Shown piece after piece: positions 35,197 to 60,335 of a DNA stretch of 64,000 nt. A program made the position numbers and the translations under genes. Source of the DNA: Acidimicrobium ferrooxidans (GTDB lineage Bacteria > Actinomycetota > Geothermincolia > Fen-727 > Anoxymicrobiaceae); NCBI GenBank assembly GCA_020723485.1, contig DYIU01000001.1:757850-821849 (forward strand), given 5' to 3'. Below the pieces are notes generated by a model. It was given only the letters and a program-made list of their open reading frames with translations. It did no database searches and was not told where the DNA came from. Numbering within the stretch: the first letter of the stretch is position 1; each line of letters starts with the position of its first letter.

Positions 35197-35206
35197 GTAA
35201 TAACCT

Positions 35207-35286
35207 GGGGTCACGTCATATTTTATTACCGGCGGTCACGCGTGCCTCGATAATCGGCACCAGGTAATAAAATTAGACGTGACCCC
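35207..35286. repeat. 80-bp palindromic element (24-bp arms GGGGTCACGTCATATTTTATTACC, 32-nt loop) between convergent genes
   Basis: Left arm 35207-35230 and right arm 35263-35286 are reverse complements with one or two mismatches; shares the GGGGTCA-GTCA 5-prime core with the element family found further downstream. Confidence 0.7.
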
Positions 35287-35289
35287 ATC

Positions 35290-36282
35290 TTATGACACGC
35301 TGTAGTAAGCGGTCTCACCGCGGAGCTCGCTTCCCACCCTGCGTTCGCTCTCGAGTATGACCAGGTGGCCGAAGACCTCCCGCATGCCCAGGAAGATGTT
35401 CTCCACGGTGTTCTCGGCCTCGATGTCCGCAAGCATGTCGAAGGTGAGCTCGATGACCGTCTTCTCCCCGTCCCCGAGCGCGCCCTCGATGAAACGCAGT
35501 CGCTCATCGTGGTGTGCGAGCACCTCCTCGACCCGCCTGCTGAAGTCCTCGATGCAGTCACCGTGACCCGGGAGCGCCAGGCGGACGTCCAGGCCCCTCA
35601 GCTTCTCGAGGGACCTGATGTAGTCGGGAAGGCCGCTCCGCTGTTCGCTCTGCCATGGGGGGTACATGTCGGGGTTCGGCGTGATGGTGTTGAGCAGCAT
35701 GTCGCCGGTGAAAAGGAGCTTCTGCGCCCTAAGGTAGAGGCAGATGTGGTCTATCGAGTGGCCGGGCGTGTGGATTACCTCGAGGTCGAACGGTTCGCCC
35801 TCCAGTATGTCTCCTTCCTCTACAGGCCTGTCGACGGCCACCCCTTCCGCTACCACGTCCCACTGGGAACTGGTCAGCGCCGTTGTTTTCACCAGCTCGC
35901 GGTCCAGCCCCATCAGCGGCGACATCCCTATCAGGTACTCGCGCAGGCGGACGGCCTCCTCCCTGTAGCTTCCGACCGGCCCGAGCCCGAGACGGTGACA
36001 GACCACCTCCGCGCCGCCCTCGGCCTTGAACCGTGCGGCTAGGCCCATGTGGTCGGGGTGGTGATGCGTGACGATTATCCTCTGGATGGAGGCCGGCGGG
36101 TGACCAAGCTCCGATAGCGTGCGCGGGATGGTCTCGGTGACTTCTTCCATGATGGGGCCGGTGTCGATGAGCGTCACCGGCTCGCCCTCGATGAGGTACA
36201 GGTTGACGGGCTGGACCGTGTAAGGTATCTCGAAGTGGAGCTTCCGGATGCCACCAGTGATATCGACTATCTCACGCTTCAA
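35290..36282 (-). CDS. MBL-fold metallo-hydrolase
   Basis: TTG start at 36282 with GGAGG upstream; metallo-beta-lactamase motif IIVTHHHPDHMG. Confidence 0.8.
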   Translation of the reverse strand: MKREIVDITGGIRKLHFEIPYTVQPVNLYLIEGEPVTLIDTGPIMEEVTETIPRTLSELGHPPASIQRIIVTHHHPDHMGLAARFKAEGGAEVVCHRLGLGPVGSYREEAVRLREYLIGMSPLMGLDRELVKTTALTSSQWDVVAEGVAVDRPVEEGDILEGEPFDLEVIHTPGHSIDHICLYLRAQKLLFTGDMLLNTITPNPDMYPPWQSEQRSGLPDYIRSLEKLRGLDVRLALPGHGDCIEDFSRRVEEVLAHHDERLRFIEGALGDGEKTVIELTFDMLADIEAENTVENIFLGMREVFGHLVILESERRVGSELRGETAYYSVS

Positions 36283-43845: not shown

Positions 43846-44976
43846 ATGGGGTCCCGGATAGACGAGGAGCTCCGCATGCTCGAGGAGATGGCGCTCGACT
43901 TCGCGGAGCGTGAGCTGAAGGACAGGCGCGAGGAGTGCGACCACTACCCCTACGCGCCGCTCGAGGAGAACGTGCTCGAGAAGGCCTGCGACGTGGGGTT
44001 TTTCTGCATGACCGTACCCGAGGAGCTCGAGGGCGGGGCCATGGGCGTCGAGGCGCTGTCGCTCGTGCTGAAGGACATATCGCGAACCGACGCGAGCCTC
44101 GCGGGAGTGATCTTCACTACCGCGCTCGCCCAGGAGCTCGTGCTGGCCGCCGGGGCCGGGTCGGTGCTTGCGGGCGCGCCGGGCAACGGCAGCTGGCGCG
44201 AATCTCTCATCGCGTTCCCCTCCTTCGACGACGCCGCCGAGAACCTCGGACTGAGTGCCGAACGGGCCGGCGGGGCGGGTTACACCCTGACGGGGAAGGT
44301 GGAATACGTTGTCCTGGGCGGTCTCGCCTCCAGGGCCCTGCTGCCGGCGGCGGTTCCCGGCGTGGACGGCTACTCCTTCTTCCTGCTCGACCTCGACGCC
44401 GAGGGTGTCAGGAAGAGCGAGCCTGTGCTGAGCCTCGGCCTGCACTCGTGCCCGGCCGTGGACCTGGAGCTCGACGGCGCGAGGGCCGCGCTCGTCGGAG
44501 AGGAGGGGCTGGGCGCCAGCTATTTCACCGACTGCGCCGACAGGCTGAGCATACCCGCCGCGGCCATCTCAACCGGCATCATGAAGGGGTGCCTCGACGA
44601 GGCGCTGGAGTACTCGCGGCAGAGGTTCCAGGGGGGCAGGGAGATAGTCAACTGGTCGGAGCTCAGGCGCATTCTCGCGGACATGGCGACCGTCCAGGCG
44701 ACGGCCGACGCGCTGGTCGCATGCGCCTGCGTGCGGGCCGAGGCAGACGAGCCCGGGTGGCGCCTGCTGGCCAGGGCGACGGCCCTCCAGGTGCAGGCCG
44801 CCGCCTGCGACGTCACGACCGACGGCATACAGGTCCTCGGCGGGAACGGCTACATGGAGGACTACGGGCAGGAGAAGCGGTTCCGCGACGCCAAGCAGGT
44901 CCAGGCGCTGCTCGGCCTGGTGCCGATGAGAAAGCTCGAGTACATAACCCGTGTCATCGAAGGCGAACCCACTTGA
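43846..44976 (+). CDS. Acyl-CoA dehydrogenase-like protein (second paralogue)
   Basis: Follows the first ACAD by 12 bp; N-terminal ACAD-like helical domain; C-terminal region ends with a GGNGY-type motif (LGGNGYMEDYGQEKRFRDAK). Confidence 0.7.
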   Translation: MGSRIDEELRMLEEMALDFAERELKDRREECDHYPYAPLEENVLEKACDVGFFCMTVPEELEGGAMGVEALSLVLKDISRTDASLAGVIFTTALAQELVLAAGAGSVLAGAPGNGSWRESLIAFPSFDDAAENLGLSAERAGGAGYTLTGKVEYVVLGGLASRALLPAAVPGVDGYSFFLLDLDAEGVRKSEPVLSLGLHSCPAVDLELDGARAALVGEEGLGASYFTDCADRLSIPAAAISTGIMKGCLDEALEYSRQRFQGGREIVNWSELRRILADMATVQATADALVACACVRAEADEPGWRLLARATALQVQAAACDVTTDGIQVLGGNGYMEDYGQEKRFRDAKQVQALLGLVPMRKLEYITRVIEGEPT

Positions 44977-44986
44977 ACGCAAAATC

Positions 44987-45008
44987 GGGGTCAGGTCACT
45001 TTGTTGCG
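44987..45008. repeat. Solo 22-bp arm of the GGGGTCAGGTCA element family
   Basis: GGGGTCAGGTCACTTTGTTGCG, 11 bp after the ACAD stop; no partner arm within 100 bp. Confidence 0.7.
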
Positions 45009-45047
45009 TTTCCTGGACAGGATCGAAAGGACGGGCGGGAGGACACA

Positions 45048-45821
45048 ATGGATGACGAGCTGTCGACCGAGCTGAGAGAGATGGACGACGAGCTGGACGA
45101 GATGCTCGAGGGCGAGGACCTCGCGCCGCCGCAGGGGGACGACTGGAACCCGGTGGAGAAGGTGATACTCGAGCGGCGCAGCGTGCGTAAATACAAGGAC
45201 AAACAGGTCCCGGAGAGCGTGGTGCGCCGCATACTGGAAGCCGGCCGGTTCGCGCCGTCGGCCGGCAACTGCCAGCCCTGGAAGTTCATAGTCGTCAGAG
45301 ACCCGGAGTTGATAGACGAGATGGAGCGGGACGCCCGCCGCATGTGCAGGCTGTTCCGGTTCTTCATGGACTGGCGGACGAGTCCCCTCGGTTACTGGAT
45401 CCCCTGGCTGCTCGCGCAGACGTACATAAGGCTGCTGCACCACGAGCTGCACCCGATACCGATGGGCGCCGTGTTCGCCATCTCGGAGGGCAACCTGTCC
45501 CTCTTCCACGGAGCGCCGACCGTCGTCTTCATCCTCGAGGACTTCCGCGGTGTCAGCAAGCCGAAAGTGGACATAGGCTGCTGCGGCCAGAACATGGTCC
45601 TTGCGGCACACAGCATGGGCCTGGGGACCTGCTGGGTGGGCACCATCAAGCTGCTCACCTTCACCCCGAAGTGGAGAAGGCGCCTGGGAGTAAAGTTTCC
45701 TTACAAGTTCTGCGAGGCCGTCACCATAGGGTACCCGGTGGGGCACCCGGACGGGATGATACCCAGGGAGACCGTGGAGACAGACTGGTACGAGGACGGA
45801 CGCAAGCGGACCACCTTCTGA
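45048..45821 (+). CDS. Nitroreductase-family flavoprotein with acidic N-terminal extension
   Basis: ATG at 45048 with GGGAGG RBS; nitroreductase motif RRSVRKYKDKQVPESVVRRILEAGRFAPSAGNCQPWKFIVV; N-terminal ~30 aa very acidic. Confidence 0.75.
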   Translation: MDDELSTELREMDDELDEMLEGEDLAPPQGDDWNPVEKVILERRSVRKYKDKQVPESVVRRILEAGRFAPSAGNCQPWKFIVVRDPELIDEMERDARRMCRLFRFFMDWRTSPLGYWIPWLLAQTYIRLLHHELHPIPMGAVFAISEGNLSLFHGAPTVVFILEDFRGVSKPKVDIGCCGQNMVLAAHSMGLGTCWVGTIKLLTFTPKWRRRLGVKFPYKFCEAVTIGYPVGHPDGMIPRETVETDWYEDGRKRTTF

Positions 45822-45837
45822 GCCTTGGAGGCTGTAA

Positions 45838-46167
45838 ATGGGCGAATTCACCCTCTTCGAGATGCTGCGGATACCCACGTACGACAACGAGGACTACGCG
45901 ACCACCGGGCGGGTCACGATCGACCTCGAGAAGTGCAACGGCTGCGGGTTGTGCGCTAAGGTGTGCCCGGGCAAGGCGCTCTATGTCGCAGGCGAGGGGA
46001 AGGACCGGAAGGCGCACATGCACGCTGATTTCCCGCAGTGCATGTCCTGCAACGACTGCGCCGCGATATGCGAGCGCGACGCCATATTCGTGAGCGTCCC
46101 CTACTTCTTCCCGTTCTTCTTCAAGACGCAGGGCAAGGGCGAGTTCTCGCCCCCCCGCAAGTTCTAA
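45838..46167 (+). CDS. 4Fe-4S dicluster ferredoxin-domain protein
   Basis: Two cysteine clusters: CNGCGLCAKVCP and CMSCNDCAAICE. Confidence 0.7.
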   Translation: MGEFTLFEMLRIPTYDNEDYATTGRVTIDLEKCNGCGLCAKVCPGKALYVAGEGKDRKAHMHADFPQCMSCNDCAAICERDAIFVSVPYFFPFFFKTQGKGEFSPPRKF

Positions 46168-46176
46168 CGAAACACA

Positions 46177-46249
46177 GGGTCAGGTCACTTGTTGCATTTC
46201 TTACTCTGAACTTGGCGGAGGATACAAGTGCAACAAGTGACCTGACCCC
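46177..46249. repeat. Full palindromic element of the GGGGTCAGGTCA family (20/21-bp arms, 32-nt loop)
   Basis: Arms GGGTCAGGTCACTTGTTGCA (46177-46196) and TGCAACAAGTGACCTGACCCC (46229-46249) are reverse complements; lies in the 85-bp gap between the ferredoxin and SDR genes. Confidence 0.8.
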
Positions 46250-46267
46250 GATGTGCAGGGAGGTGCA

Positions 46268-47119
46268 ATGGGTTACAGCGACATCCCGCGCACGGCGGTC
46301 ATAACCGGGGCCGGCTCGGGCCTGGGGAGGGCGATGGCGCTTACCCTGGCCCGGGAGGGCTTCAGGGTCGGAGCGGCCGACATCGACCTCGAGAGCGCCC
46401 GGGAGACCGTGGAGATAGTGCGCCGCGCCGGCTCTACAGGTGAGGCGGTCTCCTGCGACGTACGGTCCCACGACGCAGTCCACGCGCTGGCCGACCATTT
46501 CTTCGACGAATGGGGAGAGGTAGGCATAGTGGCGAACAACGCGGGCGTAGCCGACGTCGGCCACGTCGGTGACATCCCCATGCACTGCTGGCAGCGGACT
46601 ATCGAGACCAGCCTCTGGGGAGTCATCTACGGGTGCCACGCGTTCCTCCCCCGCATGAAGGCCAGCGGCGCCGGCCACATCATCAACACTGCTTCGGCCG
46701 CCGGCTTCATGAACATGCCCGAGATGGCGCCCTACAATATCGTCAAGGCGGGGGTCATCTCGCTGTCCGAGACGCTCAGGGTCGAGCTGACCCCGTTCGG
46801 CGTCGGCGTGACCGTCCTGTGCCCCAGCTTCATCGCGACTAACCTCGACAGGACCGCGACTGTCACCGACCCGTGGCAGGGCGAGCTGGTGACCGCCCTC
46901 TTCCAGAACGCGAAGGTCACCCCCGGCCAGGTCGCGGAGGCCACGCTGAAGGCGGTCAAGCGCAACCGCCTCTACGTGGTCCCCCAGTTCACCCCCAGGT
47001 GGGGCTGGAGGTTGAAGAGGTTGAATCCCGGAGCTTTCACCGCCGGCTTCGCCGCGGCCTACAACGCCCCCTTCGGCAAGCGCGTTGCCATGTTCTTCGC
47101 CCGCCGGGGGATGATATAG
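46268..47119 (+). CDS. Short-chain dehydrogenase/reductase (SDR)
   Basis: ATG at 46268; cofactor motif AVITGAGSGLGRAMA; NNAG motif (VANNAGVADVG). Confidence 0.8.
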   Translation: MGYSDIPRTAVITGAGSGLGRAMALTLAREGFRVGAADIDLESARETVEIVRRAGSTGEAVSCDVRSHDAVHALADHFFDEWGEVGIVANNAGVADVGHVGDIPMHCWQRTIETSLWGVIYGCHAFLPRMKASGAGHIINTASAAGFMNMPEMAPYNIVKAGVISLSETLRVELTPFGVGVTVLCPSFIATNLDRTATVTDPWQGELVTALFQNAKVTPGQVAEATLKAVKRNRLYVVPQFTPRWGWRLKRLNPGAFTAGFAAAYNAPFGKRVAMFFARRGMI

Positions 47120-47242
47120 GCCGGGACCTATTGCATTCCCCGGGCGAACTGGGATAAAAAAGACCCGTCCCTTCACAAAGGGATTTCACCCTGACTGGAA
47201 GAAGTTAGGGGTGTCTGACGAGGTCTGCTTGAGGGTGACGCG

Positions 47243-47461
47243 ATGGTGGCGGAAAAGCGCGCTACACGCATGCTCATACTCATCCCGGTTTTTGCGGTGC
47301 TGCTCGCTCTTCTCTTCTCTATGACAGGTCTCAACATGGGCATGACGGTCGCCGAGAGGCCGACGGCTCCCAGGGCCCTGATCCACGCCGCCGTCCTTTT
47401 CTCTGACGCCCTCTACATTACCGCCACCGGCGCCCAGGCGCTCGTGGCCCGTCGACAGTAA
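47243..47461 (+). CDS. Small hypothetical membrane protein (72 aa)
   Basis: ATG preceded by GAGGGTGA; one predicted TM helix (MLILIPVFAVLLALLFSMTGL); no homology recognised. Confidence 0.3.
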   Translation: MVAEKRATRMLILIPVFAVLLALLFSMTGLNMGMTVAERPTAPRALIHAAVLFSDALYITATGAQALVARRQ

Positions 47462-47568
47462 TCGCGGCGGCCCCCCTCAAAACGTGCCGGAACCCATTAC
47501 CTCGCACCGTGTGCGCCCGCGCCGCGACGGCTATTATATAGGCGACCGCAAAGAACAAGGGGGCTGCC

Positions 47569-48348
47569 ATGGACGAGGTGCTGGTCGAGAAGAGCGGGAA
47601 GGTCTGCACGGTCATCATCAACCGGCCCGAGGTGCGCAACTGCGTGAACCGGCCGACCGCCGAGCGGCTCTTCGAGGCGTTCAAGGAGTTCGACTCCGAC
47701 GATTCACTGTGCGCCGCGGTGCTCTGGGGCCAGGGCGGGTACTTCTGTGCCGGGGCTGACCTCAAGGCGCTGGCGAGCGGTGACCTCAACCTGATTAATC
47801 CCCTGAACGAGGACATGAGCCTCTGCGCCCCGATGGGCCCGACGCGGCTGCTCCTCTCAAAGCCGGTCATAGCGGCCGTCGCCGGCTACGCCGTAGCCGG
47901 TGGGATCGAGCTCGCCTGCTGGTGCGACCTCCGAATCGTTGAGGAGGACGCGGTGTTCGGGGTCTTCGACCGCAGGTTCGGCGTCCCCCTCATCGACGGG
48001 GGCACCCAGCGGCTCCCGCGGCTGGTCGGCCTGAGCCGCGCGCTCGACATGATACTGACAGGCCGGGCGGTGGGAGCCCGTGAGGCGCTCGAATTCGGGC
48101 TTGCGAACAGGGTGGTCGGCAAAGGGGAAGCCAGGCTGGAGGCGGAGAAGCTGGCCGCCGAGCTCGCGGAGTTTCCACAGTCGGGGCTGCGGGGCGACCG
48201 GAAAGCGGCCTATCTCGGGTTCGGGCTCGAGCTCGACAGGGCGATGGAACTCGAGTACAGGGTCGGCATCGAGGCTATCACCAGCGGCGAGGCGGTCACG
48301 GGAGCCACCGAGTTCACCGGCGGCAAGGGAAAGCACGGGCAGTTCTGA
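47569..48348 (+). CDS. Enoyl-CoA hydratase/isomerase (crotonase family)
   Basis: Crotonase oxyanion-hole region (FCAGADLKAL) and conserved catalytic stretch (VAGYAVAGGIELACWCDLRI). Confidence 0.85.
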   Translation: MDEVLVEKSGKVCTVIINRPEVRNCVNRPTAERLFEAFKEFDSDDSLCAAVLWGQGGYFCAGADLKALASGDLNLINPLNEDMSLCAPMGPTRLLLSKPVIAAVAGYAVAGGIELACWCDLRIVEEDAVFGVFDRRFGVPLIDGGTQRLPRLVGLSRALDMILTGRAVGAREALEFGLANRVVGKGEARLEAEKLAAELAEFPQSGLRGDRKAAYLGFGLELDRAMELEYRVGIEAITSGEAVTGATEFTGGKGKHGQF

Positions 48349-48457
48349 CTCCCGGCGCGCTGCGTGACAGCACGAAGGAGGCGCGGTGCCCGGGCGTTGC
48401 CTCTGTGGCAAGAGGTCGCTGGCTGGCTTTCCGCCCGGGCCCCACCGCCGAACTTCG

Positions 48458-51211
48458 CTAGTCGGTTCCGCTCACCCCGAGTGACGCGTGCGCAGCCTGC
48501 CGGTACGTCCCGTCCGCGCCGTGCCAGTACATCGCTCTCTCGGCTATTACCGGCGCATCGGAGGTTACCAGGGTGGAGACGCTCCACTCACCGGGCAGCG
48601 TGTCGGCCACGCTGAGGGTCTGCCTGCCTCCCGGCTCGAGGGGCGGCAGAGGCGGGCCGGGCACACTCCCCTCGAGCGTCATGTACGTTATCAGCGGGTT
48701 GGCAACTTCGGTCCCGGCGTTGAAGATTGTGATCCAGGTCTCGAAAGAGCCGAAGGTGCCCGAGCCCGTTGAACCTTCGGCGAAGCACCACTCCACCGCA
48801 CCGGCCGTGGCGCCGATCGACCCGTGCGCCGCCTGCCGGTAGGTCCCGTCAGAACTGTGCCAGTACACTGAGCGCTCCGCGACTATCGGTACGTCTGATG
48901 CCACATGCGTGGAGAAGCTCCACTCACCGGCAATGCCGACGTTGTACGTCTGCCTCGTACCCGGCTCCAGCGGGGGAACTATGTGCCGGGTCGCGGATTC
49001 AATGTTGACGTTTGCCGTCTCGGTCCCCGGGTTCTGAACGGTGATCCAGGTCTCGAACGAGCCGTGGCCGTCCGAGCCCGCGGAGCCCTCCGCGAAGTAC
49101 CAATCCGTCGCCCCGGCTGTGACCCCGATGGAATCGTGCGCCGCCTGCCGGTAAGCCCCGCCGGAACCGTGCCAGTAAACCGCCCTCTCCGCGACGATCG
49201 GTACGGTGGAGCTGACCCGGGTTGAGACGCTCCATTCGCCGGGAACCGTGTCCCCAACGCTGAACGTCTGCCTGGTCCCGGGCTCCAGAGGCGGCACGGC
49301 CGGTCCCGCTACCTCGCCCTCCGGAGTCATGTAAGTCATCACCGGGAGGGCGGTTACGGCTCCCGGATTCTGCAGTGTGATCCAGGTCTCGAACGAGCCA
49401 CGCGAGTCAGAGCCGGTGGAGCCTTCAGCGAAGTACCAGTCGGACGCACCCGCGTTGACCCCGATGGAATCGTGAGCCGCCTCGCGGTAGCCGCCGTCAG
49501 CGCCGTGCCAGTACTGCGCCCTTTCGGCAGCTATCGGCACGTCCGAGGTGACATGGGTGGACACGCTCCACTCATCCGGGACCGTGTCACCCACCGAGTA
49601 CGTTTGCCTGGTCCCCGGCTCCAGGGGCGGGACGGGCGGTCCGGCCACCTCGCCGCCCGGCGTCATGTAGGTGATCACCGCCTGCGCCGACTGGTTCCCC
49701 GGGTTCTGAAGGACAATCCATGTCTCGAAAGACCCACGGGCGTCAGCGCCGGTGGAGCCCTCGGCGAAGTACCAGTTCTGTGCCGTATCCGGGAGCTCGG
49801 GGTTGTTTACGACCGTCTGTGTATCGCTCGCGGTCTTGTAGTAACCGGTCTGCTCGTCCTTTATCTCGGCGATGTTTATCAATAGGACGTCCCCGAAACG
49901 CGGGAACTGGTCCTGCGCCTTGAGGGTCAGCCTGTAGCTGAACTCGCTGGTGGCCGAACCGCCCTCGAGCCGCCCGACCTGCCATCGGACCTTCCCGCCG
50001 TCGATTACGCTCCCCCCGTCCGTGATGCCGGTCACGCTCTCCACGAGGCTCTCGTCGTAGTCGTCCATGACCGCTACCTGGTTCGCGGCGGTCTGGCCGC
50101 GGTTCTCGAAGCTCACGGTGTACTCCAGGGTGTCCCCGGGCGAGATGAGCCCGTCGCCGTCGCGGTCGACGGCCAGCCGCCCGCTTTTCTCGATATTGAA
50201 GTCGACCATCGCGGCGAACCAGAACCAGTCGAAGTAGAAATCGGCGTAATACCCGTCGTCGTCCGTGTTGACGAGGTCGACCGAGTACCTGGCTGTGTCC
50301 GTGGCGACGTGCCCGGCCAGAGGGTAGGTCCTGTCGTCCCAGCTGTTCCCGTCCGTATCCTCGCAGACGTCGTCCTGGTGGAAGTCCGGAGCGTTGCGGT
50401 TGCCCCACTCGTCATAGGAGCGGAAGTCGTAGGACATTGTGTCCGGGGCGTGGCCTTCGGATGTCAGGATGCCCTTGTAGGCGGAGGGGAGTGTCGGCCT
50501 GGTGGTGAAGTCCATGGCGGAACAACTCGCCTGGTGATGCGAGTCCATGATGTTACAGCCGTCGGCGATGCACACCTCGCCCATGGTGATCGACTGGTGA
50601 GTGAAGACTATTACGAGGCTTGCCCCCCACCACGCCTTCAGGGGAAGGAGGCTGAGCGGCCCGGTCTCGACGTGGTACATCCGGTTGGGCTCGTCCCCGA
50701 TGAGGTCGGTGACCTCCGCGCGGTACAGGCGGCGGTGGTTGACGCCGTTCATCATCTCGTAGCCGACCTGGTCGACGTCGCCCCCCTCGTCCCTCCAGCC
50801 GGTCAGGGGCGTGCCCTCGAACGTTATCTCGCCGGACCCGGCCGGCGCCTGGTCCCTTCCCGGTATGGAACGCCCGTCGGTCCCGAAGTTCCCTCCCCAG
50901 TAGAGGAAGGCTCTCTTTATCTCAGCACCTTCCGGCACATGGTTTATCGTGGCGTTACCGGGGGACATGTCGATGTACATCTGGCTCCTGTCCGGGGCCT
51001 CGTGCATCCCGATACCCTCGGAAGTTATCCCCACGTTACCGGCAGCCCTGAGGAAGACGGTGGTGGAGCCGTCCTTACCGACCGACCAGTCAATGGTCTC
51101 GTCGTATGACAGGGCCGACTTGTCCGCCGCAGCCGCCGGCCCGTACGCGCCGATGATGAGACAGGCCAGTATGAAAACCGCCGGCAGGACGATAAGGCGT
51201 CTTCTCAACAT
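48458..51211 (-). CDS. Secreted repeat protein (917 aa), paralogue of the giant protein: unique N-terminal half plus 4 type-A repeat modules
   Basis: ATG at 51211 with AAAGGA RBS; signal peptide (MLRRRLIVLPAVFILACLIIGAYGPAAAA); C-terminal half holds four ~110-aa modules beginning [WC][YF]FAEGS.G....GSFETWI.[VLI].N.G and ending AER[AS].YWH. Confidence 0.8.
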   Translation of the reverse strand: MLRRRLIVLPAVFILACLIIGAYGPAAAADKSALSYDETIDWSVGKDGSTTVFLRAAGNVGITSEGIGMHEAPDRSQMYIDMSPGNATINHVPEGAEIKRAFLYWGGNFGTDGRSIPGRDQAPAGSGEITFEGTPLTGWRDEGGDVDQVGYEMMNGVNHRRLYRAEVTDLIGDEPNRMYHVETGPLSLLPLKAWWGASLVIVFTHQSITMGEVCIADGCNIMDSHHQASCSAMDFTTRPTLPSAYKGILTSEGHAPDTMSYDFRSYDEWGNRNAPDFHQDDVCEDTDGNSWDDRTYPLAGHVATDTARYSVDLVNTDDDGYYADFYFDWFWFAAMVDFNIEKSGRLAVDRDGDGLISPGDTLEYTVSFENRGQTAANQVAVMDDYDESLVESVTGITDGGSVIDGGKVRWQVGRLEGGSATSEFSYRLTLKAQDQFPRFGDVLLINIAEIKDEQTGYYKTASDTQTVVNNPELPDTAQNWYFAEGSTGADARGSFETWIVLQNPGNQSAQAVITYMTPGGEVAGPPVPPLEPGTRQTYSVGDTVPDEWSVSTHVTSDVPIAAERAQYWHGADGGYREAAHDSIGVNAGASDWYFAEGSTGSDSRGSFETWITLQNPGAVTALPVMTYMTPEGEVAGPAVPPLEPGTRQTFSVGDTVPGEWSVSTRVSSTVPIVAERAVYWHGSGGAYRQAAHDSIGVTAGATDWYFAEGSAGSDGHGSFETWITVQNPGTETANVNIESATRHIVPPLEPGTRQTYNVGIAGEWSFSTHVASDVPIVAERSVYWHSSDGTYRQAAHGSIGATAGAVEWCFAEGSTGSGTFGSFETWITIFNAGTEVANPLITYMTLEGSVPGPPLPPLEPGGRQTLSVADTLPGEWSVSTLVTSDAPVIAERAMYWHGADGTYRQAAHASLGVSGTD

Positions 51212-51429
51212 GACAGGTTCCTTTCTCTCCAGCCTTCGCTCATCAGGGCGCTCAGGCCGACCTTTACCACGCGGGGATGTTCTTCACCAGCGCGGGAGCA
51301 CCCGCCGCCATCGCACTCGTCATCATCCGCCAGCGGGTAGCGCGGGAGGGAGCATTCCCCCGACCACGGCCCGGAGTACGCCCTGAGGTACTGCGCTATC
51401 CAGTTCCGCGGGAGTGGTTCGTACTTCAT
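51205..51429 (-). CDS. Small hypothetical Cys-containing protein (74 aa)
   Basis: ATG at 51429 preceded by GAGGAG-type RBS; four cysteines; stop region overlaps the start of the downstream secreted-protein gene. Confidence 0.35.
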   Translation of the reverse strand: MKYEPLPRNWIAQYLRAYSGPWSGECSLPRYPLADDDECDGGGCSRAGEEHPRVVKVGLSALMSEGWRERNLSC

Positions 51430-51645
51430 CGCTTCTCCTCGTGGTTGGCAGGGGTTTCGCGCATTTGCCCTCCTGTGACTCGCCGCCGCCGTAAGAGTGC
51501 ACCTTCCCGTTTCAGGTTATGTAGTGAGTCAATAATGCGTACTAGCAATATAGGTTGGACAGTGGGTTAATTTCAATAGCCGCAGCGGGAATTGTTGATA
51601 AAATACCCTGAATAGGGGATTATCTGACGTTCACTTAATGCAGTA

Positions 51646-51693
51646 TTGACAAAAAACCATCTGAAATATATTATTAATTATCCAATTAATTAA
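51646..51693 (+). promoter_or_regulatory. Canonical sigma70-type promoter with ATTAATTA operator-like motifs upstream of the second TetR gene
   Basis: TTGACA (51646-51651), 17-nt spacer, TATTAT (51669-51674); two ATTAATTA motifs (around 51673-51680 and 51685-51692) overlap the -10 and predicted start; embedded in a ~160-bp AT-rich divergent region. Confidence 0.55.
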
Positions 51694-51702
51694 GGAGTTC
51701 AA

Positions 51703-52326
51703 ATGGCGAGGACGCCGGCAGGCCCGGGACCGGAAGAGAGGAAGAAGCAAATACTGGAGGCCGCAATCGAGGTGTTCGGCCAGAAGGGATACGGCAACGC
51801 GACCGCCGTGGAGATAGGTGAGAAGGCGGGTGTATCATCAGGGACGGTATTCCACTATTTCGGGAACAAGAAGGAGCTGTTCCGCGAGGCTCTGAGGAAC
51901 TGCGCCGTCGATCTTCGGGCGGCGATGGAAAGGGGCAGCCCACCCACCGACGACATAAAGACGTTTCTCAAGATGACGTCGAGGAACTTCTTCGCGTATC
52001 TTCTCGAGAACCCCATGAAGGTGAAGATCCTCTTTCACAGCCCCGAGACCCTCGCGGACCAGGACATCAAGTACGAGTACCGGCGCGTGATGGAAGACCT
52101 CTACCAGTTCGTGTACTCGATGCTCGAAGGTGCCCGGAACAGGGGAGAACTGCCGGAGGACCTCTATATCCAGGGAATCGCCGAGTACATGCTGGGTTTT
52201 AGCTTCTTCACGTCATATCTCTCATTCCTGGGGATAGAGTGGTTCCAGGGCGGCGGGGTATTCCGGTTTACCGACGGCGACTACCTCATCGACTACCTGA
52301 CCAGGCCGCAGGCCGGCCGGGCGTGA
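51703..52326 (+). CDS. TetR-family transcriptional regulator
   Basis: AAGGAG RBS; helix-turn-helix region (KKQILEAAIEVFGQKGYGNATAVEIGEKAGVSSGTVFHYFGNKKELF). Confidence 0.8.
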   Translation: MARTPAGPGPEERKKQILEAAIEVFGQKGYGNATAVEIGEKAGVSSGTVFHYFGNKKELFREALRNCAVDLRAAMERGSPPTDDIKTFLKMTSRNFFAYLLENPMKVKILFHSPETLADQDIKYEYRRVMEDLYQFVYSMLEGARNRGELPEDLYIQGIAEYMLGFSFFTSYLSFLGIEWFQGGGVFRFTDGDYLIDYLTRPQAGRA

Positions 52327-52346
52327 CGCCGTCACCCGAGAAGGAC

Positions 52347-52377
52347 GAAACCCCCGGTACAGATGACCGGGGGTTTC
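52347..52377. terminator. Hairpin with 10-bp GC-rich stem between convergent genes (candidate bidirectional terminator)
   Basis: GAAACCCCCGG-TACAGATGA-CCGGGGGTTTC, immediately after the TetR stop and before the stop of the minus-strand membrane-protein gene. Confidence 0.55.
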
Positions 52378-52398
52378 GAATGAAGGTTCCGGATCGCG

Positions 52399-53094
52399 CT
52401 ACTGCTGGGGTGTCCCCGGCTCCGCCGGCTGCGGCGGCAGCTGCGGGGGCGCCTGCGTCTCCACCGGCGTCGCCGCAAGCAGGGTGCGGTACACGTAAGC
52501 GTTAGTCACCAGTATCACCGGGACCGCGAACAGCATTCCTACGCAGCAGGCGAGGAACCCGAGGATGTTGATCCCCAGGATCGTCCACCAGAGCCCGAAC
52601 ATGTGCCACCACACGCCGCGGGTCAGCTGACCGCTCCGCTTGATGGCGTCCACCGGGCCCAGGTCCTGGTCGATGATGAGGTAGGTGAAGAACTGGTACC
52701 GGATGGCCCAGTAGATGCCCGGGATGATAAGCAGTATGAACCCGGCCAGGACGATCAGGCCGTAGAGTATCATTCCGACCAGCACATCCAGGAACTTCGG
52801 GTACTTGTCGACCAGGTCGGGGAAGTCGGCCGTCTCGCCGCTCACGAACTTCAGGCCGACGTTGGCCTGGGCGATGTTGATGAACACGCTGACGACGAAG
52901 CTCGCGATGCCGAAGATTATCGACCATATCGCGGCAGCGGTACTGGACATGTACGCGCTCATCGACTGGATGCCGCCGGGAATCGCACCGGCCACCCAGA
53001 AGATGAGCACCGTCGGGATGAAGAACCCCAGGTTCGTCTTCATCGCGTTCCAACCGAACGAAACGGCGTCCCCGATAGAGAAGTTCTTCTCCAT
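52399..53094 (-). CDS. Hypothetical integral membrane protein with Pro/Gln-rich C-terminal tail
   Basis: ATG at 53094; about six predicted TM helices; C-terminus ATPVETQAPPQLPPQPAEPGTPQQ. Confidence 0.6.
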   Translation of the reverse strand: MEKNFSIGDAVSFGWNAMKTNLGFFIPTVLIFWVAGAIPGGIQSMSAYMSSTAAAIWSIIFGIASFVVSVFINIAQANVGLKFVSGETADFPDLVDKYPKFLDVLVGMILYGLIVLAGFILLIIPGIYWAIRYQFFTYLIIDQDLGPVDAIKRSGQLTRGVWWHMFGLWWTILGINILGFLACCVGMLFAVPVILVTNAYVYRTLLAATPVETQAPPQLPPQPAEPGTPQQ

Positions 53095-53344
53095 TTAAAG
53101 CCCCCTTCCGCCGGGGCGACCTCGCCCTCCGGCACCAGCTGAGCAGGCAAACACCTGCCACAATGATATCGTGCATCTCCAAAGATAACTTTACACGCGG
53201 GCCGCCGCGTTCCTCCACGGGGCCTGGAGCGCGTTCTTACCGAAGGTAAAATCCTGCGTGCGACAGCGGCGGATATGCACGGGGCGAGCCCACTCTTATA
53301 TAATTTGACACTGGCCTGATTGTATTTAGTGGAGGGAGTTGTCA

Positions 53345-54391
53345 ATGAAGACCAAGATCACCGAACTCCTGGGCATCGAACACCCGATAATCCTCTCGGG
53401 TATGAGCTGGATAAGCACGCCGGAGATGGTGGCCGCCGTGAGCAACGCGGGGGGCCTGGGCATACTGGCGACGGGCGTCCTGGACGCGGACGAGACGAGG
53501 AAGGCCATCAAGCGCATAAGGGAGCTGACCGACAAGCCTTTCGGGGCGAACGCTTCCCTGCTCTTCCCGGGAGCCGCCGCGAACGCCGCTGTGTGCCTCG
53601 AGGAGAAGATACCGGTTGTCAACTTCTCGCTGGGAAAGGGCGACTGGATAGTGCAGATGGCTAACGAGTACGGCGGCAAGGTCCTGGCGACCGTCACCAA
53701 CGCCCGCCACGCGAAACGCGCCCAGGACTACGGCTGCCACGGGGTCATCGCGACCGGGAACGAGGCGGCCGCGCACGGCGAGCCACCGACGACCTTCTGC
53801 CTTGTGCCGAGCATGGCCGATGTCATCGACATCCCCATTATTGCGGCGGGCGGAGTGGGCGACGGGCGCGGGCTGGCGGCGGCCATGGCACTGGGCGCCG
53901 AGGGGGTCGCCATGGGGACCCGGCTGATGACGACAGTCGAAAGCCCCCTCCACGAGAATTACAAGAAGCTCTCGATCGAGAAGGACGTCTACGACACGCT
54001 CTACAGCAAGCGCTTCGATGGCCTGTGGTGCCGCGTCCTGGACACTCCGGGCGCCAGGAAGTCCATCAAGGCGGGCATCTTCCCGTGGGGTTACCTCAAG
54101 GCGATACCCAACTCGAAGTTCCTCGCCGACATGCTGAACCTCCCATACTGGAAGATGTTCATCGGGGTGCTGGCCTCCGGGTGGAGCAACGCCCGGCAGC
54201 TCGCCTACATGGCGAACGCTTTCAACAAGATAAAGGAAGCGACCGAGGAAGGCGACGTTGTAAAGGGCGTTCTGCCGGTCGGCCAGGTGACCGGTCTCCT
54301 GCACGATATCCCGACCGTCGCAGAGGTGATCGAGCGCACCGTCCGGGAAGCCGAGGAGATAATAAAGGCCCGGCTGGCCCAGATGGCGTAG
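53345..54391 (+). CDS. Nitronate monooxygenase / FMN-dependent enoyl-reductase-like (NMO family) protein
   Basis: ATG at 53345 with GGAGGGAG RBS; NMO sequence (ITELLGIEHPIILSGMSWISTPEMVAAVSNAGGLGILA...; IPIIAAGGVGDGRGLAAAMALGAEGVAMGTR). Confidence 0.8.
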   Translation: MKTKITELLGIEHPIILSGMSWISTPEMVAAVSNAGGLGILATGVLDADETRKAIKRIRELTDKPFGANASLLFPGAAANAAVCLEEKIPVVNFSLGKGDWIVQMANEYGGKVLATVTNARHAKRAQDYGCHGVIATGNEAAAHGEPPTTFCLVPSMADVIDIPIIAAGGVGDGRGLAAAMALGAEGVAMGTRLMTTVESPLHENYKKLSIEKDVYDTLYSKRFDGLWCRVLDTPGARKSIKAGIFPWGYLKAIPNSKFLADMLNLPYWKMFIGVLASGWSNARQLAYMANAFNKIKEATEEGDVVKGVLPVGQVTGLLHDIPTVAEVIERTVREAEEIIKARLAQMA

Positions 54392-54395
54392 GGAA

Positions 54396-55526
54396 TTGGC
54401 CTCAGAAACGCGCTTCGCCCCGCCGGAACGGGAGGAAAGACAGCAGGCGCTGGCCGAGTCGCGCAGGCTCGGAAAGGACAGCGACCTGCAGCTGCTGCTG
54501 AGAGCAGTGCCTGACTGCGCGGCCATCCTGAACGACAAGAGGCAGGTGCTGCTGGCGAACGGCGAGCTCCTGGGGCTGCTCGGGGCGGAGGACCTCGAGA
54601 ACGCGGTAGGGAGCAGGCCCGGGGAGGCGGTGGGCTGCATCCACGCATGGGATTCCCCCGCAGGATGCGGCACCTCGGAAAGCTGCAGATACTGCGGCGC
54701 GGCCCAGGCGCTGGTGGCGGCAGTCGAGACCGGTAGGAAAACGACCCACGAGTGTCGTATCACAGCGAGCTGCGAGACCGAGACGGAGTGGCTCGACCTC
54801 CTGGTGACCGCGCTTCCCATCGAACACGAGGGAAGCACGCTGGTCCTTCTCACTCTCTCGGACATAAGCGACCTCAAGCGCAGGAGAGCCCTCGAGAGGA
54901 TATTCTTCCACGACGTGCTGAACTCGGCCTCTGCGCTCTACGGGTTACTGCAGATGGCGCACGACTTCGAGGAGGGTGACGTCCGCGAAGAGCTCGGGCG
55001 GCTCGTCGACCTCGGCGGGCGGCTGATAGACGAGATAACCTCGCAGAGGGACCTGCTCGCGGCCGAGAGCGGCGAGCTCAACGTGCAGCCCAGGCCGGTG
55101 GATATCCAGGAGCTGCTCCTGGAGGCGGCCTCGCAGTTCAGGAGCATGACACTGGACGAGGGCAAGGAGCTTGTGGTCGAGGAAGGGGCGGCCCTGGAGA
55201 TAATCACCGACCAGCGGCTGCTGTTCCGCATCATCACGAACATGCTCAAGAACGCGCTCGAGGCATCGGGCGAGGGCTCGACCGTGACCGCGGGTGCCGA
55301 GGCCGTGGGCGAAGGTGCCCGCGTATGGGTGCGGAACCCCGGATGGATGCCCAGGGAGGTCCAGCTGCAGGTGTTCCAGCGCTCTTTCTCCACGAAGGGT
55401 GCCGGCCGGGGCATCGGCACTTACAGCATGAAGCTCATCGGCGAGCGCTATCTCAAGGGTGAGGTCTCGTTCGAATCCGACGAAGTGAGAGGTACGGAGT
55501 TCAGCATCACGCTGCCCCCGGCGTAG
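54396..55526 (+). CDS. Cytoplasmic sensor histidine kinase (no adjacent response regulator)
   Basis: TTG start; no TM helix; N-terminal sensor-like region with a four-Cys stretch (CIHAWDSPAGCGTSESCRYC); H-box-like IFFHDVLNSASAL; ATPase N-box (ITNMLKNALEAS) and G-boxes (GAGRGIGTYSMK). Confidence 0.7.
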   Translation: MASETRFAPPEREERQQALAESRRLGKDSDLQLLLRAVPDCAAILNDKRQVLLANGELLGLLGAEDLENAVGSRPGEAVGCIHAWDSPAGCGTSESCRYCGAAQALVAAVETGRKTTHECRITASCETETEWLDLLVTALPIEHEGSTLVLLTLSDISDLKRRRALERIFFHDVLNSASALYGLLQMAHDFEEGDVREELGRLVDLGGRLIDEITSQRDLLAAESGELNVQPRPVDIQELLLEAASQFRSMTLDEGKELVVEEGAALEIITDQRLLFRIITNMLKNALEASGEGSTVTAGAEAVGEGARVWVRNPGWMPREVQLQVFQRSFSTKGAGRGIGTYSMKLIGERYLKGEVSFESDEVRGTEFSITLPPA

Positions 55527-55590
55527 AGATACGGGTGAGGGCGGCCGTCGGGCTGACCATGGGGTACAATATCCAGAGCGGCCCAGTGAG

Positions 55591-55998
55591 ATGAAGACGC
55601 GTGAGGAGCGTGCCATGCCGGATGACAAAGCCTTGCTCGAGACCCTGGTAGCGCGCGAGAAGGTTCGCCGCGAGGCCTGGCTCAACCATGACGCGGAGGC
55701 GCTCCGCGGCCTGCTGACGGACGACTACGTCGAGGTCAACCTGCTGGGTCGCCTGTCGCGCGAACAGGTGCTCGAGGAGATATTCCCCTACCTCGAGATG
55801 AAAGAGTACGAGATGAGCGACTTCCGCCTGGCCCGCGCGGGAACCGGGGCGGCTGCCATCACCTACCACTGCCGGGAGAGGGTGAGCTTCAAGGGCGAGC
55901 CCGACATCACCGGCGACTTCCACGTCTCCGCCGTATACACGCAGGAAGACAGCGAGTGGCGCCTGCTGCTCTGGTCGATCACCCCCTACGAGAAGTAA
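55591..55998 (+). CDS. NTF2-like/SnoaL-like fold protein (DUF4440-like)
   Basis: 135 aa; composition and motif spacing (W..HD.EAL..LL.DDY...N..G......V.........) typical of small NTF2-like proteins; not verified. Confidence 0.55.
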   Translation: MKTREERAMPDDKALLETLVAREKVRREAWLNHDAEALRGLLTDDYVEVNLLGRLSREQVLEEIFPYLEMKEYEMSDFRLARAGTGAAAITYHCRERVSFKGEPDITGDFHVSAVYTQEDSEWRLLLWSITPYEK

Positions 55999-56163
55999 GA
56001 GCAAGGGGTCAGACCACTAACGTCACGTCCCCAGCAGCAGTACTAGCCGCTGACGCCCGTTTTCGGAGTAATGCCGTTGAATTCGCCGGTGCGCAATATG
56101 ACGAAACCGGCCTGACCCCATCTGGTATACTGACGCGAGTGTCACCAAACACGGGAGGGCCCA

Positions 56164-58032
56164 ATGAGAGGCGACTCGATCACGGGCTGCGAGCTCATCT
56201 CGCGGTGCCTCGAGGCGGAGGGCATCCGCTACGTCTTCACGGCACATACCGAGCGCCTGCACCCCCTGCTCGACGCTCTCGAGCAAAAGGGAGACATCAG
56301 GGTGGTGGCGGCCAGAAGCGAGACCGCGGCCACGGTGATGGCCGACGGGTACGTCCGGCGCTCGAGGCGCGTCGCGGCGGTCCTGACCGACGACAACGGC
56401 GCCGCGTTGTCGCAGGTGAGCGGGGTGACCAACGCGTGGGCGGACAAGATCCCCCTGCTGTCGCTGTCACTCAGCGCGGACAGTGAGCCAGACTTCAGCA
56501 AAGGGTATGACCGTTACCGCTTCGACCAGGGTGAGGTCTTCCAGCCGGTCACCCAGTACAGGAGTAAGCTCGAGTCGCTTTCCGAGGCGCAGTCGGTCTT
56601 TGCCGAGGCCGTTGCGCGTTCCACCAGCAACAAGATGGGGCCGTGCCACGTAGACATCCCGGCGCGCCTGCTTGGCGAGACTATCGACGGCAGGTCGGCG
56701 CCTGACCCGGGCGGTTTCGAGGAGCGGAGGATAGAGTCCGTCAGGATGTGCGGTGACGGGGACGCCGTGGAGCGCGCCGCGGCCCTGATCGCCGGTGCCG
56801 AAAGGCCCCTGCTGTTCCTCGGCGGCGGTGTCCATGCCTCGGGCGCCCATGCCGAGGCCGCCGGGCTTGCCAGGGGGCTTGGCATTCCCGTGGCGACCTC
56901 GATGGCCGGCGTCGGGGCGTTCCCGCTGGACGACCCGCTCTGCCTGGGGGGCCCGAGCTATACCTCGGGTGAGGTCTTCCATGCGGCGATCAAGGAAGCG
57001 GACACGGTCGTAGCCGTGGGTGTCAGTTTCGGCGGCCTCGAGGGCTTCGGACTTCCACCGCTGTGGTCGGACGCGATACGGTTCATACACATCGACGTCG
57101 CCCCCCTGCAGATGGGCTTGAACGTACACCCGGAGGTAGCGGTGCTGGGTGACGCGCGGACCGTCCTGACCCAGCTGGCGGAAACGCTCGCGGGTCGTGG
57201 CTTCACGGGCCGGCCGGAGTGGGGCCGCTGGAGCGCCAGACTGGCGGAGCTCAAATCCGGGCGGGCCAGGCGGCTGGAGCGCAACGCCATGAGGCGTTGG
57301 CCCTCCATGCACCAGGGAAGGGCAGCGATGGAGCTCGGCAGGCTCGTGGACCGGGACGACCTGCTGATAGTCATCGACGGCGGCAACACTCCGCTCTACG
57401 CCACCATGTACGCCCCCACCATAAAGCCCGGACAGGCGTTCTTCCCGTTCGGGATGGCCGCCCTCGGCGGGGGAATCCCATACGCGATAGGGGTGCAGCT
57501 CGCGTCGCCCGACAGGCGGGTGCTGCTGGTCACCGGTGACGGTTCTTTCATGTACAACGTCCAGGAGCTGGAGACGATCAAGAGGCTCGGGCTCCCGATA
57601 ATGATCGCCGTGAACAACGACTCCGCCTGGAACATGATAAAGGCCATGCAGGACTCCCTGTTCGCGCGCAACTTCGTGGGCACGTGCCTGCCGGATGTCG
57701 ATTACTCGAAGATAGCCTCCGGGTTCGGCCTCCACGCTGAGAGGGTCTCGCGGCCCGAGGAGATAGCCCCTGCTTACGAGCGGGCGGTGGCTTCGGGCGG
57801 CCCGGCGCTCATCGACGCGGTCACTGACTCCACGAACATCCCGGACAGCCTGCTCAGCTTCTTCCTTGTCGAGTTCGAGGGAGCGTTCGCGGGCATCAGC
57901 CCCACCAAGCTCGCCAGGAGCCTCTGGATGATGAGAGACGTGGGAATCCACAGGATGATGTACATGTCGACTTACATCAGGAAAGCGCTCTTGAAGGTGT
58001 TCATCCCTTCGGGGTGGGGGAGGTCGTCATGA
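56164..58032 (+). CDS. Thiamine-pyrophosphate-dependent enzyme (acetolactate-synthase/2-hydroxyacyl-CoA-lyase superfamily)
   Basis: TPP N-terminal domain with catalytic Glu context (ARSETAATVMADGY); central domain; intact TPP-binding motif GDGSFMYN...NNDSAWN. Confidence 0.8.
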   Translation: MRGDSITGCELISRCLEAEGIRYVFTAHTERLHPLLDALEQKGDIRVVAARSETAATVMADGYVRRSRRVAAVLTDDNGAALSQVSGVTNAWADKIPLLSLSLSADSEPDFSKGYDRYRFDQGEVFQPVTQYRSKLESLSEAQSVFAEAVARSTSNKMGPCHVDIPARLLGETIDGRSAPDPGGFEERRIESVRMCGDGDAVERAAALIAGAERPLLFLGGGVHASGAHAEAAGLARGLGIPVATSMAGVGAFPLDDPLCLGGPSYTSGEVFHAAIKEADTVVAVGVSFGGLEGFGLPPLWSDAIRFIHIDVAPLQMGLNVHPEVAVLGDARTVLTQLAETLAGRGFTGRPEWGRWSARLAELKSGRARRLERNAMRRWPSMHQGRAAMELGRLVDRDDLLIVIDGGNTPLYATMYAPTIKPGQAFFPFGMAALGGGIPYAIGVQLASPDRRVLLVTGDGSFMYNVQELETIKRLGLPIMIAVNNDSAWNMIKAMQDSLFARNFVGTCLPDVDYSKIASGFGLHAERVSRPEEIAPAYERAVASGGPALIDAVTDSTNIPDSLLSFFLVEFEGAFAGISPTKLARSLWMMRDVGIHRMMYMSTYIRKALLKVFIPSGWGRSS

Positions 58033-59570: not shown

Positions 59571-59584
59571 CGTGATGCAACACT

Positions 59585-59606
59585 GGGGTCAGGTCATTTT
59601 GTTGCG
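59585..59606. repeat. Solo 22-bp arm of the GGGGTCAGGTCA element family
   Basis: GGGGTCAGGTCATTTTGTTGCG, 15 bp after the stop of the second TPP-enzyme gene. Confidence 0.7.
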
Positions 59607-59686
59607 TTTTCAACTGGCAGGGGGGTGGAAGCGGGCCTTCGTAGGGCGTAATCTGTATCCCACAGCAGCAGATCGAGGAGGTCTTC

Positions 59687-60238
59687 ATGGGGGACGAGAT
59701 GAACGGGACTGCCGGCGAAGCCGGAGCGTCCGGGTGGAGTGACCCCAAGGTCGCTGGCTATCTGATGACGCTGACATATGCGTGCGGCGCCGCCGGAGTG
59801 GCACTCGGTGTCTACGGGTATGGGACGGACGGAGCCGTGAAAGGGCTGCACTACGCCTGCATCCTGATGGTCGGCGTCGTCGGGATCATCTCCGGGATAC
59901 GGCACACCGTCTTCTATCGAAGCGACCTTGCGCGGATGGGCATAAGCGAGGGGAAACCGTTCTTCCAGTGGGAGACCGGCTTCGCCAACCTTGCGCTGGG
60001 CGTCATCGCGGTCATCGCCTTCTTCGCCGGCTGGGGCGGCGGCGCCGAGGTGGCCCTCATACTGGCATATGCGCTCTACCTCGCCCTCGCCCTCTCGCTC
60101 GTGATCTACAGGCGCGTCAGCTCGAAGAGCCTGGACGCGGGCGTGATATTCGCTATGGTCATGTGGGCGGTAACGGTGGGCTTCATGCTCTTCTTCGGTA
60201 TCGCGGCGGCCGTTTCTTCCGAGCTGTCGCTGTTCTGA
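59687..60238 (+). CDS. Hypothetical membrane protein (183 aa)
   Basis: GAGGAGG RBS; four to five predicted TM helices; no family recognised. Confidence 0.6.
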   Translation: MGDEMNGTAGEAGASGWSDPKVAGYLMTLTYACGAAGVALGVYGYGTDGAVKGLHYACILMVGVVGIISGIRHTVFYRSDLARMGISEGKPFFQWETGFANLALGVIAVIAFFAGWGGGAEVALILAYALYLALALSLVIYRRVSSKSLDAGVIFAMVMWAVTVGFMLFFGIAAAVSSELSLF

Positions 60239-60247
60239 CGCAAACAA

Positions 60248-60326
60248 GGGGTCAGGTCACTTTGTTGCATTTTCACGTGTTCGATCCAGTGAAGTGCAGT
60301 AAAACGCAACAAAGTGACCTGACCCC
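60248..60326. repeat. Full palindromic element of the GGGGTCAGGTCA family (22-bp arms, 35-nt loop) between convergent genes
   Basis: Arms GGGGTCAGGTCACTTTGTTGCA (60248-60269) and CGCAACAAAGTGACCTGACCCC (60305-60326); starts 10 bp after the membrane-protein stop and ends 10 bp before the stop of the minus-strand aldo/keto reductase gene. Confidence 0.8.
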
Positions 60327-60335
60327 GATGTTGCG

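Follow-up and report, generated by a model that had tools for sequence, protein, structure and literature searches.

The 64-kb stretch of DNA analysed here (the window) carries a palindrome at 46177-46249, in the gap between the genes for a ferredoxin-like protein and a short-chain dehydrogenase/reductase (SDR). Its position raises the question of whether it is a regulatory part of the operon, acting through a hairpin in the mRNA, or a repeat that has entered the operon from elsewhere. Our analysis indicates that the palindrome is less likely to be a signal dedicated to regulation than selfish DNA within an operon, and that the repeated hairpin element to which it belongs is probably mobile.

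The palindrome in its operon

As the first-pass annotation had stated, 46177-46249 is an inverted repeat: two arms of 23 nt (46177-46199 and 46226-46248) are 96% complementary and enclose a 26-nt loop (46200-46225). The left arm, GGGTCAGGTCACTTGTTGCATTT, is a repeat unit in sense orientation (plus strand; nhmmer unit 46166-46202), and the right arm, its complement, is a unit in inverted orientation (minus strand; nhmmer unit 46223-46260). The spacer between them is unique sequence and had no match in any other copy or locus compared. The window has exactly two occurrences of the 20-nt core GGGTCAGGTCACTTGTTGCA, one on either strand, where 0.01 are expected. Both arms share a private 1-nt deletion, CACTTGTTGC in place of CACTTTGTTGC, and the left arm, which reads AGGGTCAG, has lost one G (AGGG, not GGGG). 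The peptide motif SDLTP in the list of ORFs does come from the element, as had been proposed, but from the right arm on the plus strand (ORF 46038-46304) and not from the reverse strand, on which the left arm with its AGGG gives SDLTL.

The upstream gene (45838-46167, plus strand) encodes a 4Fe-4S ferredoxin-like protein of 109 aa that matches Pfam Fer4 families, and the downstream gene (46268-47119, plus strand) encodes an SDR of 283 aa that matches Pfam adh_short. Orthologues and the public gene call place the SDR start at ATG 46268 and not at GTG 46253, which lengthens the gap from the 85 bp first given to 100 nt; the palindrome fills 73 nt of it. The claim that it occupies most of the space between two co-directional genes holds. 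The left-arm unit begins 1 nt past the ferredoxin stop codon, and the SDR ribosome-binding site, GGGAGG (46258-46263, plus strand), lies 2 nt past the extended hairpin and is unpaired in the predicted fold. Co-transcription of the two genes is almost certain: only 11 nt separate them in the closest relative, and neither a promoter-like nor a terminator-like site lies near the element. Elsewhere in the window, two large secreted-looking proteins are encoded on the minus strand (48458-51211 and 61962-63470). Both contain several internal repeats resembling W[YF][FL]AEG[ST]TG...FETWIT[LV]QNPG, and the only Pfam matches of the protein at 48458-51211 are a weak CLIPPER and a faint CARDB.

If transcribed, the palindrome would form a stable hairpin, an earlier expectation that the folding calculations support. 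The predicted RNA fold has an energy of -50.7 kcal/mol, compared to -24.1 +/- 3.3 kcal/mol for shuffled sequences (z = -8.2), and none of 200 shuffles equalled it; as single-stranded DNA the same segment folds at -27.8 kcal/mol (z = -7.8). A terminator scan reported nothing in the 46177-46249 region, where the hairpin is followed by CCCCGAUGUGCAGGGAGG without a U tract, and the promoter scan reported no promoter-like sites near the palindrome. The whole window gave no Rfam matches at gathering thresholds, and at permissive thresholds the palindrome site gave only sub-threshold, generic microRNA-hairpin noise.

The repeat family and the placement of its units

The palindrome is built as an inverted doublet: its repeat unit, of ~35 nt, is AAY-GCAACAYY-GGGGTCAGGTCAC-TTTGTTGC-RTTT and defines a family that we refer to as family A. 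GCAACA pairs with TGTTGC, so that each unit is a small hairpin with a stem of 6-9 bp around a loop of 13-17 nt that holds the GGGGTCAGGTCAC block. On its own this hairpin is weak (-4 to -5 kcal/mol as DNA, z = -1.2 to -3.0). The units are extragenic and repeated, and they carry GGGGTCAG, the left arm at 46177-46199 being the exception. Singlets finish in a T-rich tail, GCRTTTT.

A profile search detected eight family-A units in the window, arranged as three inverted doublets and two singlets, which bears out the earlier description of the palindrome as a full copy of a repeat family. The doublet in the ferredoxin-SDR gap spans 46166-46260 in the nhmmer search. The same program placed one singlet at 44976-45013 (plus strand, 37.4 bits), 2 nt past the stop codon of an acyl-CoA dehydrogenase gene, and the other at 59574-59611 (plus strand), 6 nt past the stop codon of a TPP-enzyme gene. 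The doublet at 60237-60337 exactly fills the gap between two convergent genes, with its arms 1 nt past their stop codons (DNA fold -33.9 kcal/mol, z = -7.9), and the doublet at 63438-63532, whose arms are complementary at 31 of 31 positions, lies between two minus-strand genes (-37.3 kcal/mol, z = -10.5).

More diverged relatives of these elements are also present. A diverged palindrome at 35197-35296 (GTAATAAcctGGGGTCACGTCATAtTTTATTAC), immediately after a stop codon, belongs to the same superfamily, and another at 19561-19677 has GGGGTCAkACCACTTTCGT ends and a 79-nt spacer. A degenerate palindrome with GGGGTCAG ends follows a stop codon at 56005-56119, and a GGGGTCA-ended sequence at 40118 is a possible diverged singlet. 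All eight family-A units fall within 44976-63532, in the last 19 kb of the window, and its first 44 kb contain only the diverged GGGGTCA-ended palindromes (19561, 35197, 40118).

Doublets have a near-constant overall length (87-101 nt) and arms that are 90-100% alike. Their spacers are unrelated, with no homology found among them, a combination that plain copying of entire doublets does not explain. At the same time the doublet behaves as a unit, as indicated by the private deletion common to both arms at 46177-46249 and by two further doublets that likewise carry arm-specific shared variants. One short-read contig (14,633 bp) from the same organism has its start at the 44976 singlet; given its length, it should end close to the 59574 singlet, a pattern typical of dispersed repeats. 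Family A thus explains both the spurious ...SDLTP... ORFs and the short-read contig breaks in this uncultivated actinobacterial lineage.

The family-A unit was also found in a Candidatus Geothermincolia MAG (L001-L004, L014) and in nine metagenome contigs; a scan of viral contigs gave 0 matches. The pattern used for the metagenome scan was too loose, so that most of its 120 loci are chance matches or one conserved gene and ~25 are informative. One recurrent sequence, aaacgccagatgggtcGGGGTCAGGTACTTTAATTGCacc, is near-identical in many metagenomes (L016, L025, L027 and ~20 further loci); it appears to come from a conserved gene in some common organism and to be a chance match to the pattern, not a repeat. 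Literature searches with the strings GGGGTCAGGT and ACCTGACCCC returned only primers and unrelated matches.

The units tend to follow coding regions closely, a location also reported for REPs (PMC3733652). In ~20 of 31 units the GCAAC motif begins 1-9 nt past the stop codon that ends a long same-strand ORF, and doublets between convergent genes adjoin the stop codons of both. Of 13 singlets, ~11 are oriented in the sense of the upstream gene (one-sided binomial p ~0.01, the cases being partly non-independent). This stop-proximal, sense placement may reflect selection in a compact genome, a function at the RNA level, or targeting. When 160 distinct GGGGTCA[GC]G sites were pooled, 35 had at least 6 of 8 possible pairs between their 5' and 3' flanks, compared to 14% in the control; this is a weak enrichment, diluted by chance sites, on which our reading does not rest.

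The ferredoxin-SDR gap in related lineages

The gene order nitroreductase, ferredoxin, SDR, 72-aa ORF, enoyl-CoA hydratase is kept in four lineages. The SDR of the window is 88% identical to that of L008/L009, the closest relative, and every other pair is ~71-73% identical. The small ORF between the SDR and hydratase genes (47243-47461, plus strand, in the window) has no Pfam match, and its position is kept in all four related lineages (71-72 aa).

In L008/L009 the ferredoxin-SDR gap is 11 nt long (TTCTAACGGGAGGCGATATG) and has no element, and the GGGAGG ribosome-binding site of the SDR gene comes straight after the stop codon. The gap in the window has the same flanks plus 89 nt (46170-46258, boundary +/-1 nt), made up of the two arms, the spacer and degenerate outer GCAACAYY segments on either side. 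The empty site reads TTCTAACG followed directly by GGAGGCGATATG; the window reads TTCTAACG, then the insert AAACACAGGGTCAGG...CCTGACCCCGATGTGCAG, then GGAGGTGCAATG. Comparison of the window with the L008/L009 empty site revealed no target-site duplication longer than 1 nt, and other copies have inverted flanks in place of direct ones. Y1 'peel and paste' transposition would be expected to add 89 nt without target duplication in this way, unlike the movement of miniature elements (MITEs) by DDE transposases.

The other two lineages have units in the gap in different arrangements. In L010-L013 there are two units in direct orientation, and in L014 there is one unit followed by unrelated sequence. 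The copies in the gap carry the unit variant of their own genome (all three units of the L010 genome have GGTGRC, not GGTCAC), which favours turnover within genomes over plain inheritance of one ancient copy. Occupancy varies at other orthologous positions as well. The gap that corresponds to the doublet at 60237-60337 is 36 nt long in L014, and behind its SDR gene L010 carries a unit that is missing from the window. The site of the singlet at 44976-45013 is empty in L014, and in L010 (8657-8749) it is occupied by a look-alike, TCATGCC-GGGGCCAGGCAC-CATGATGA, which resembles a decayed core whose stem is different yet still complementary.

In the Geothermincolia MAG, a tail-to-tail arrangement, CCTGACCCCgccctaataattGGGGTCAGATCTGATTTCATT, at L014 11130-11180 overlaps the 71-aa ORF at its end; the corresponding place in the window is empty.

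The first-pass annotation had proposed that the hairpin could set the relative stability of upstream and downstream mRNA segments, and had named absence from close relatives with the same gene order, together with uniform transcript coverage, as evidence to the contrary. Such absence is found in part: the closest relative (L008/L009) is without the element, and the more distant ones have differently arranged copies. An empty site in the closest relative together with rearranged copies elsewhere points to a mobile or decaying repeat and not to a conserved regulatory part.

These comparisons make it unlikely that the palindrome is a selected post-transcriptional signal. On that account, the hairpin after the ferredoxin stop codon would block 3'-5' exonucleases or create a processing site, mRNA levels would differ between the upstream genes (acyl-CoA dehydrogenase, nitroreductase, ferredoxin) and the downstream genes (SDR, hydratase), and the family would be a domesticated 3'-UTR module. 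The very stable RNA hairpin fits this account, as do the unpaired ribosome-binding site and the missing U tract, with which read-through is likely. The sense orientation of most singlets, the units 1-9 nt past stop codons and the presence of a unit in this gap in three lineages could likewise mean selection at the RNA level and not pure selfish spread. For REPs, both a position that is mostly downstream of coding regions and activity as RNA elements have been reported (Di Nocera et al. 2013, PMC3733652). On the other hand, the closest relative keeps the operon with its 11-nt gap, the arrangement is lineage-specific (inverted doublet, direct doublet or singlet), occupancy of other orthologous gaps is variable, and copies follow unrelated genes. 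Whichever way the element is read, the operon exists in four states among related genomes (11-nt gap, singlet, direct doublet, inverted doublet), a natural series for the effects of hairpins on polycistronic mRNA.

The proposed Y1 transposase link and known systems

The metagenome scan also uncovered other repeat families that share a GGGGTCAGG(T) core and have different self-complementary flanks, for example GCAAAAAA-GGGGTCAGGTACC-TTTTTTGC and CCGAAAAA-...-TTTTTCGG. These sister families occur as inverted doublets with variable spacers and also as nested copies, and in one of them (GGGGTCAGGTAATTTATTTGC...) conservation begins exactly at GGGG. At L094 2050-2900, GGGGTCA...TGACCCC palindromes are nested, with aaaaaGGGGTCAGGTACCTTTATTGC...ATAAAGGTACCTGACCCCttttt inside further AAGGGGTCA/TGACCCCTT pairs; the sequence suggests that the elements may insert into copies of their own kind.

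Sister-family repeats are found next to genes for Y1 transposases. In L044 a 251-aa ORF has doublets on both sides, in L032 a 224-aa ORF lies between two inverted units, and both match PF01797 (Y1_Tnp), at 58.3 and 43.7 bits, respectively (cut-off 23). Their best NCBIfam match is REP_Tyr_transpos (57-61 bits, under the equivalog cut-off of 80), and the transposases found here have the HUH motif NHWH and the tyrosine motif YV[EQ]RN[AP]. In L081 a partial transposase homologue adjoins one unit. L136 and L137, which were picked by protein homology alone, have CCCGAAAAAGGGGTCAGGAATCTTTTTG upstream of a Y1 transposase gene and CAAAAAAGATTCCTGACCCCTTTT at its 3' end. Altogether, a hairpin repeat of the GGGGTCAGG type was present beside the Y1 transposase gene in 5 of 5 loci examined. 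The TGA stop codon of the transposase falls within the CCTGACCCC core of the downstream repeat (L136 3703-3705, L137 3706-3708), so that in these two loci the gene end is encoded by the repeat. Named homologues of these transposases are mostly from Planctomycetota, and the L044 protein had no match among PDB sequences at E <= 0.01.

In the window and in ~150 kb of related DNA from the family-A loci, neither tblastn nor an HMM built from 122 RAYT-like proteins detected a Y1 transposase ORF. One such gene is expected per genome, and its absence from ~150 kb therefore says little. The enzyme cognate to family A is thus inferred, from the sister families that flank Y1 transposases, and not seen.

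We consider it likely that the element is a non-autonomous, REPIN-like doublet of the GGGGWSAS class, and that the copies in this lineage were moved by a Y1 transposase and came to lie in an operon spacer. A transposase encoded elsewhere in the genome would move, or would have moved, the copies as single-stranded hairpin DNA, and the copy at 46170-46258 would have landed in an 11-nt spacer between the ferredoxin stop codon and the SDR ribosome-binding site. If so, the polycistronic mRNA would carry the hairpin (-50.7 kcal/mol, no U tract) as a by-product. It may nevertheless shield the upstream mRNA segment from 3' exonucleases, and read-through into the SDR gene is plausible. Several observations weigh against this reading: no Y1 transposase ORF was detected in the DNA searched, the units have no GTAG/GTGG foot, single units fold weakly, singlets mostly follow stop codons in sense orientation, the gap is occupied in three lineages, and the spacers of doublets are unrelated.

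A broader proposal, that all hairpins with a GGGGTCAGG core form one superfamily of Y1 substrates across phyla (Actinomycetota and Planctomycetota-type) whose insertion or retention is directed just past stop codons in sense orientation, appears doubtful to us. The invariant 10-nt core would in that case occupy the loop, above a stem covarying from one lineage to the next. If the proposal were true, either targeting is coupled to the 3' ends of genes or a domesticated 3'-UTR function is kept by turnover.

Returning to the REPIN-like doublet, two other readings of the palindrome fare poorly beside it. We regard it as highly improbable that family A represents classical MITEs, which would derive by deletion from a DDE insertion sequence with GGGG-starting ends (Tn3-like) and move by cut-and-paste. 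It does resemble MITEs such as Correia/NEMIS, RUP, ERIC and Nezha in being a dispersed, non-coding and gene-adjacent family of ~90-100 nt with terminal inverted repeats, which when co-transcribed give RNA hairpins able to alter mRNA stability, and the sister family that is conserved exactly from GGGG would suit a DDE terminus. MITEs are, however, moved by DDE enzymes with target-site duplications, whereas the filled and empty sites compared here show none; in family A half-elements (isolated single arms) are common and direct doublets exist, conservation continues outside GGGG, and the transposase genes found beside such repeats are of the Y1/HUH type only. It is just as hard to credit a role in transcription, be it as a bidirectional terminator, as an attenuator or as a palindromic operator bound by a regulator of the catabolic genes: the strong hairpin, the T-rich tail of the singlets and the TetR-family genes nearby would agree with one or the other, but the terminator scan was negative at this copy, which has no U tract, a half-site spacer of 26 nt and variable length does not suit an operator, and copies follow many unrelated genes, lie between convergent genes and occur in other genomes.

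Several other candidates were rejected. Integron attC sites have RYYYAAC/GTTRRRY cores, of which there are none here, and the flanking genes are syntenic in relatives; a SECIS element is excluded by copies that follow TAA and TAG besides TGA; the core is absent from the coding DNA of the window, unlike a DNA uptake sequence; and there is no CRISPR array. The resemblance of GGTCACTTTGTTGCA to IS6-family ends and that of GGUCAGGUC to SRP RNA we take to be coincidental.

Among known systems, REP, BIME and REPIN elements (E. coli, Pseudomonas; mobilised by RAYTs) share many properties with family A. Both consist of short, extragenic, palindromic units, as singlets or as inverted doublets that fold into long hairpins, located mostly downstream of genes, with variable occupancy of orthologous sites and no target duplication; association with single-copy Y1 transposases, a property of REPs, is presumed for family A. 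The doublet also acts as a unit in both; in family A the whole 89 nt are absent from the empty site and the arms share private variants. E. coli REPs protect the upstream mRNA segment from 3' exonucleases, and those within operons such as malEFG stabilise upstream mRNA. The differences lie in the unit itself. The GTAG/GTGG foot of canonical REPs was present at neither foot in 31 family-A units, which start with AAY-GCAAC. Canonical REPs (RAYT Groups 2-3) are imperfect palindromes of high copy number, with a long GC-rich stem of 7-20 bp and a loop of 2-5 nt, whereas the family-A unit has a short stem and a 13-17-nt loop, is conserved in the loop and not in the stem, and forms doublets whose spacers are unrelated between copies.

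A closer counterpart is offered by RAYT-like genes for tyrosine transposases of the IS200 family (HUH/Y1) that are flanked not by GTAG REPs but by 'TIRs', and that were named 'TIRtrons', with enzymes termed 'TIRYT' (Di Nocera et al. 2013, PMC3733652). Several of these TIRs share GGGGWSAS, some are self-complementary, and some families are moderately abundant as singles, dimers and clusters (PMC3733652). TIRYT has been tentatively equated with TnpA-Y1 subclass 2.1, for which no REP-like structures were found (Quentin et al. 2018, PMC6006769), and for RAYT Group 1 the flanking 16-mers are just modestly repeated (Bertels et al. 2017, PMC5581495). The TIRtron enzymes are probably the same as TnpA-Y1 subclass 2.1 and RAYT Group 1 (PMC6006769, PMC5581495). 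In the literature searched, the TIRYT terms occur only in PMC3733652 and PMC6006769, neither of which mentions Actinobacteria.

Like the TIRs of TIRtrons, family A is extragenic and moderately abundant, occurs as singles, dimers and clusters, has some self-complementary units, and carries a sequence, GGGGTCAG, that fits GGGGWSAS exactly; in the sister families examined, a PF01797 gene is bracketed by oppositely oriented repeats. In contrast to the TIRs, no TIRYT gene was seen for it in ~150 kb of lineage DNA, its host belongs to the uncultivated actinobacterial class Candidatus Geothermincolia, and its conserved 8-nt outer GCAACAYY segment puts GGGG in the loop of the hairpin and not at the end. 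The palindrome in the ferredoxin-SDR gap is thus an ordinary kind of element that represents a new family in a new host lineage and reveals no novel type of system; what it adds is a further host lineage for REP-like repeats of the GGGGWSAS/TIRYT class, which have hardly been studied.
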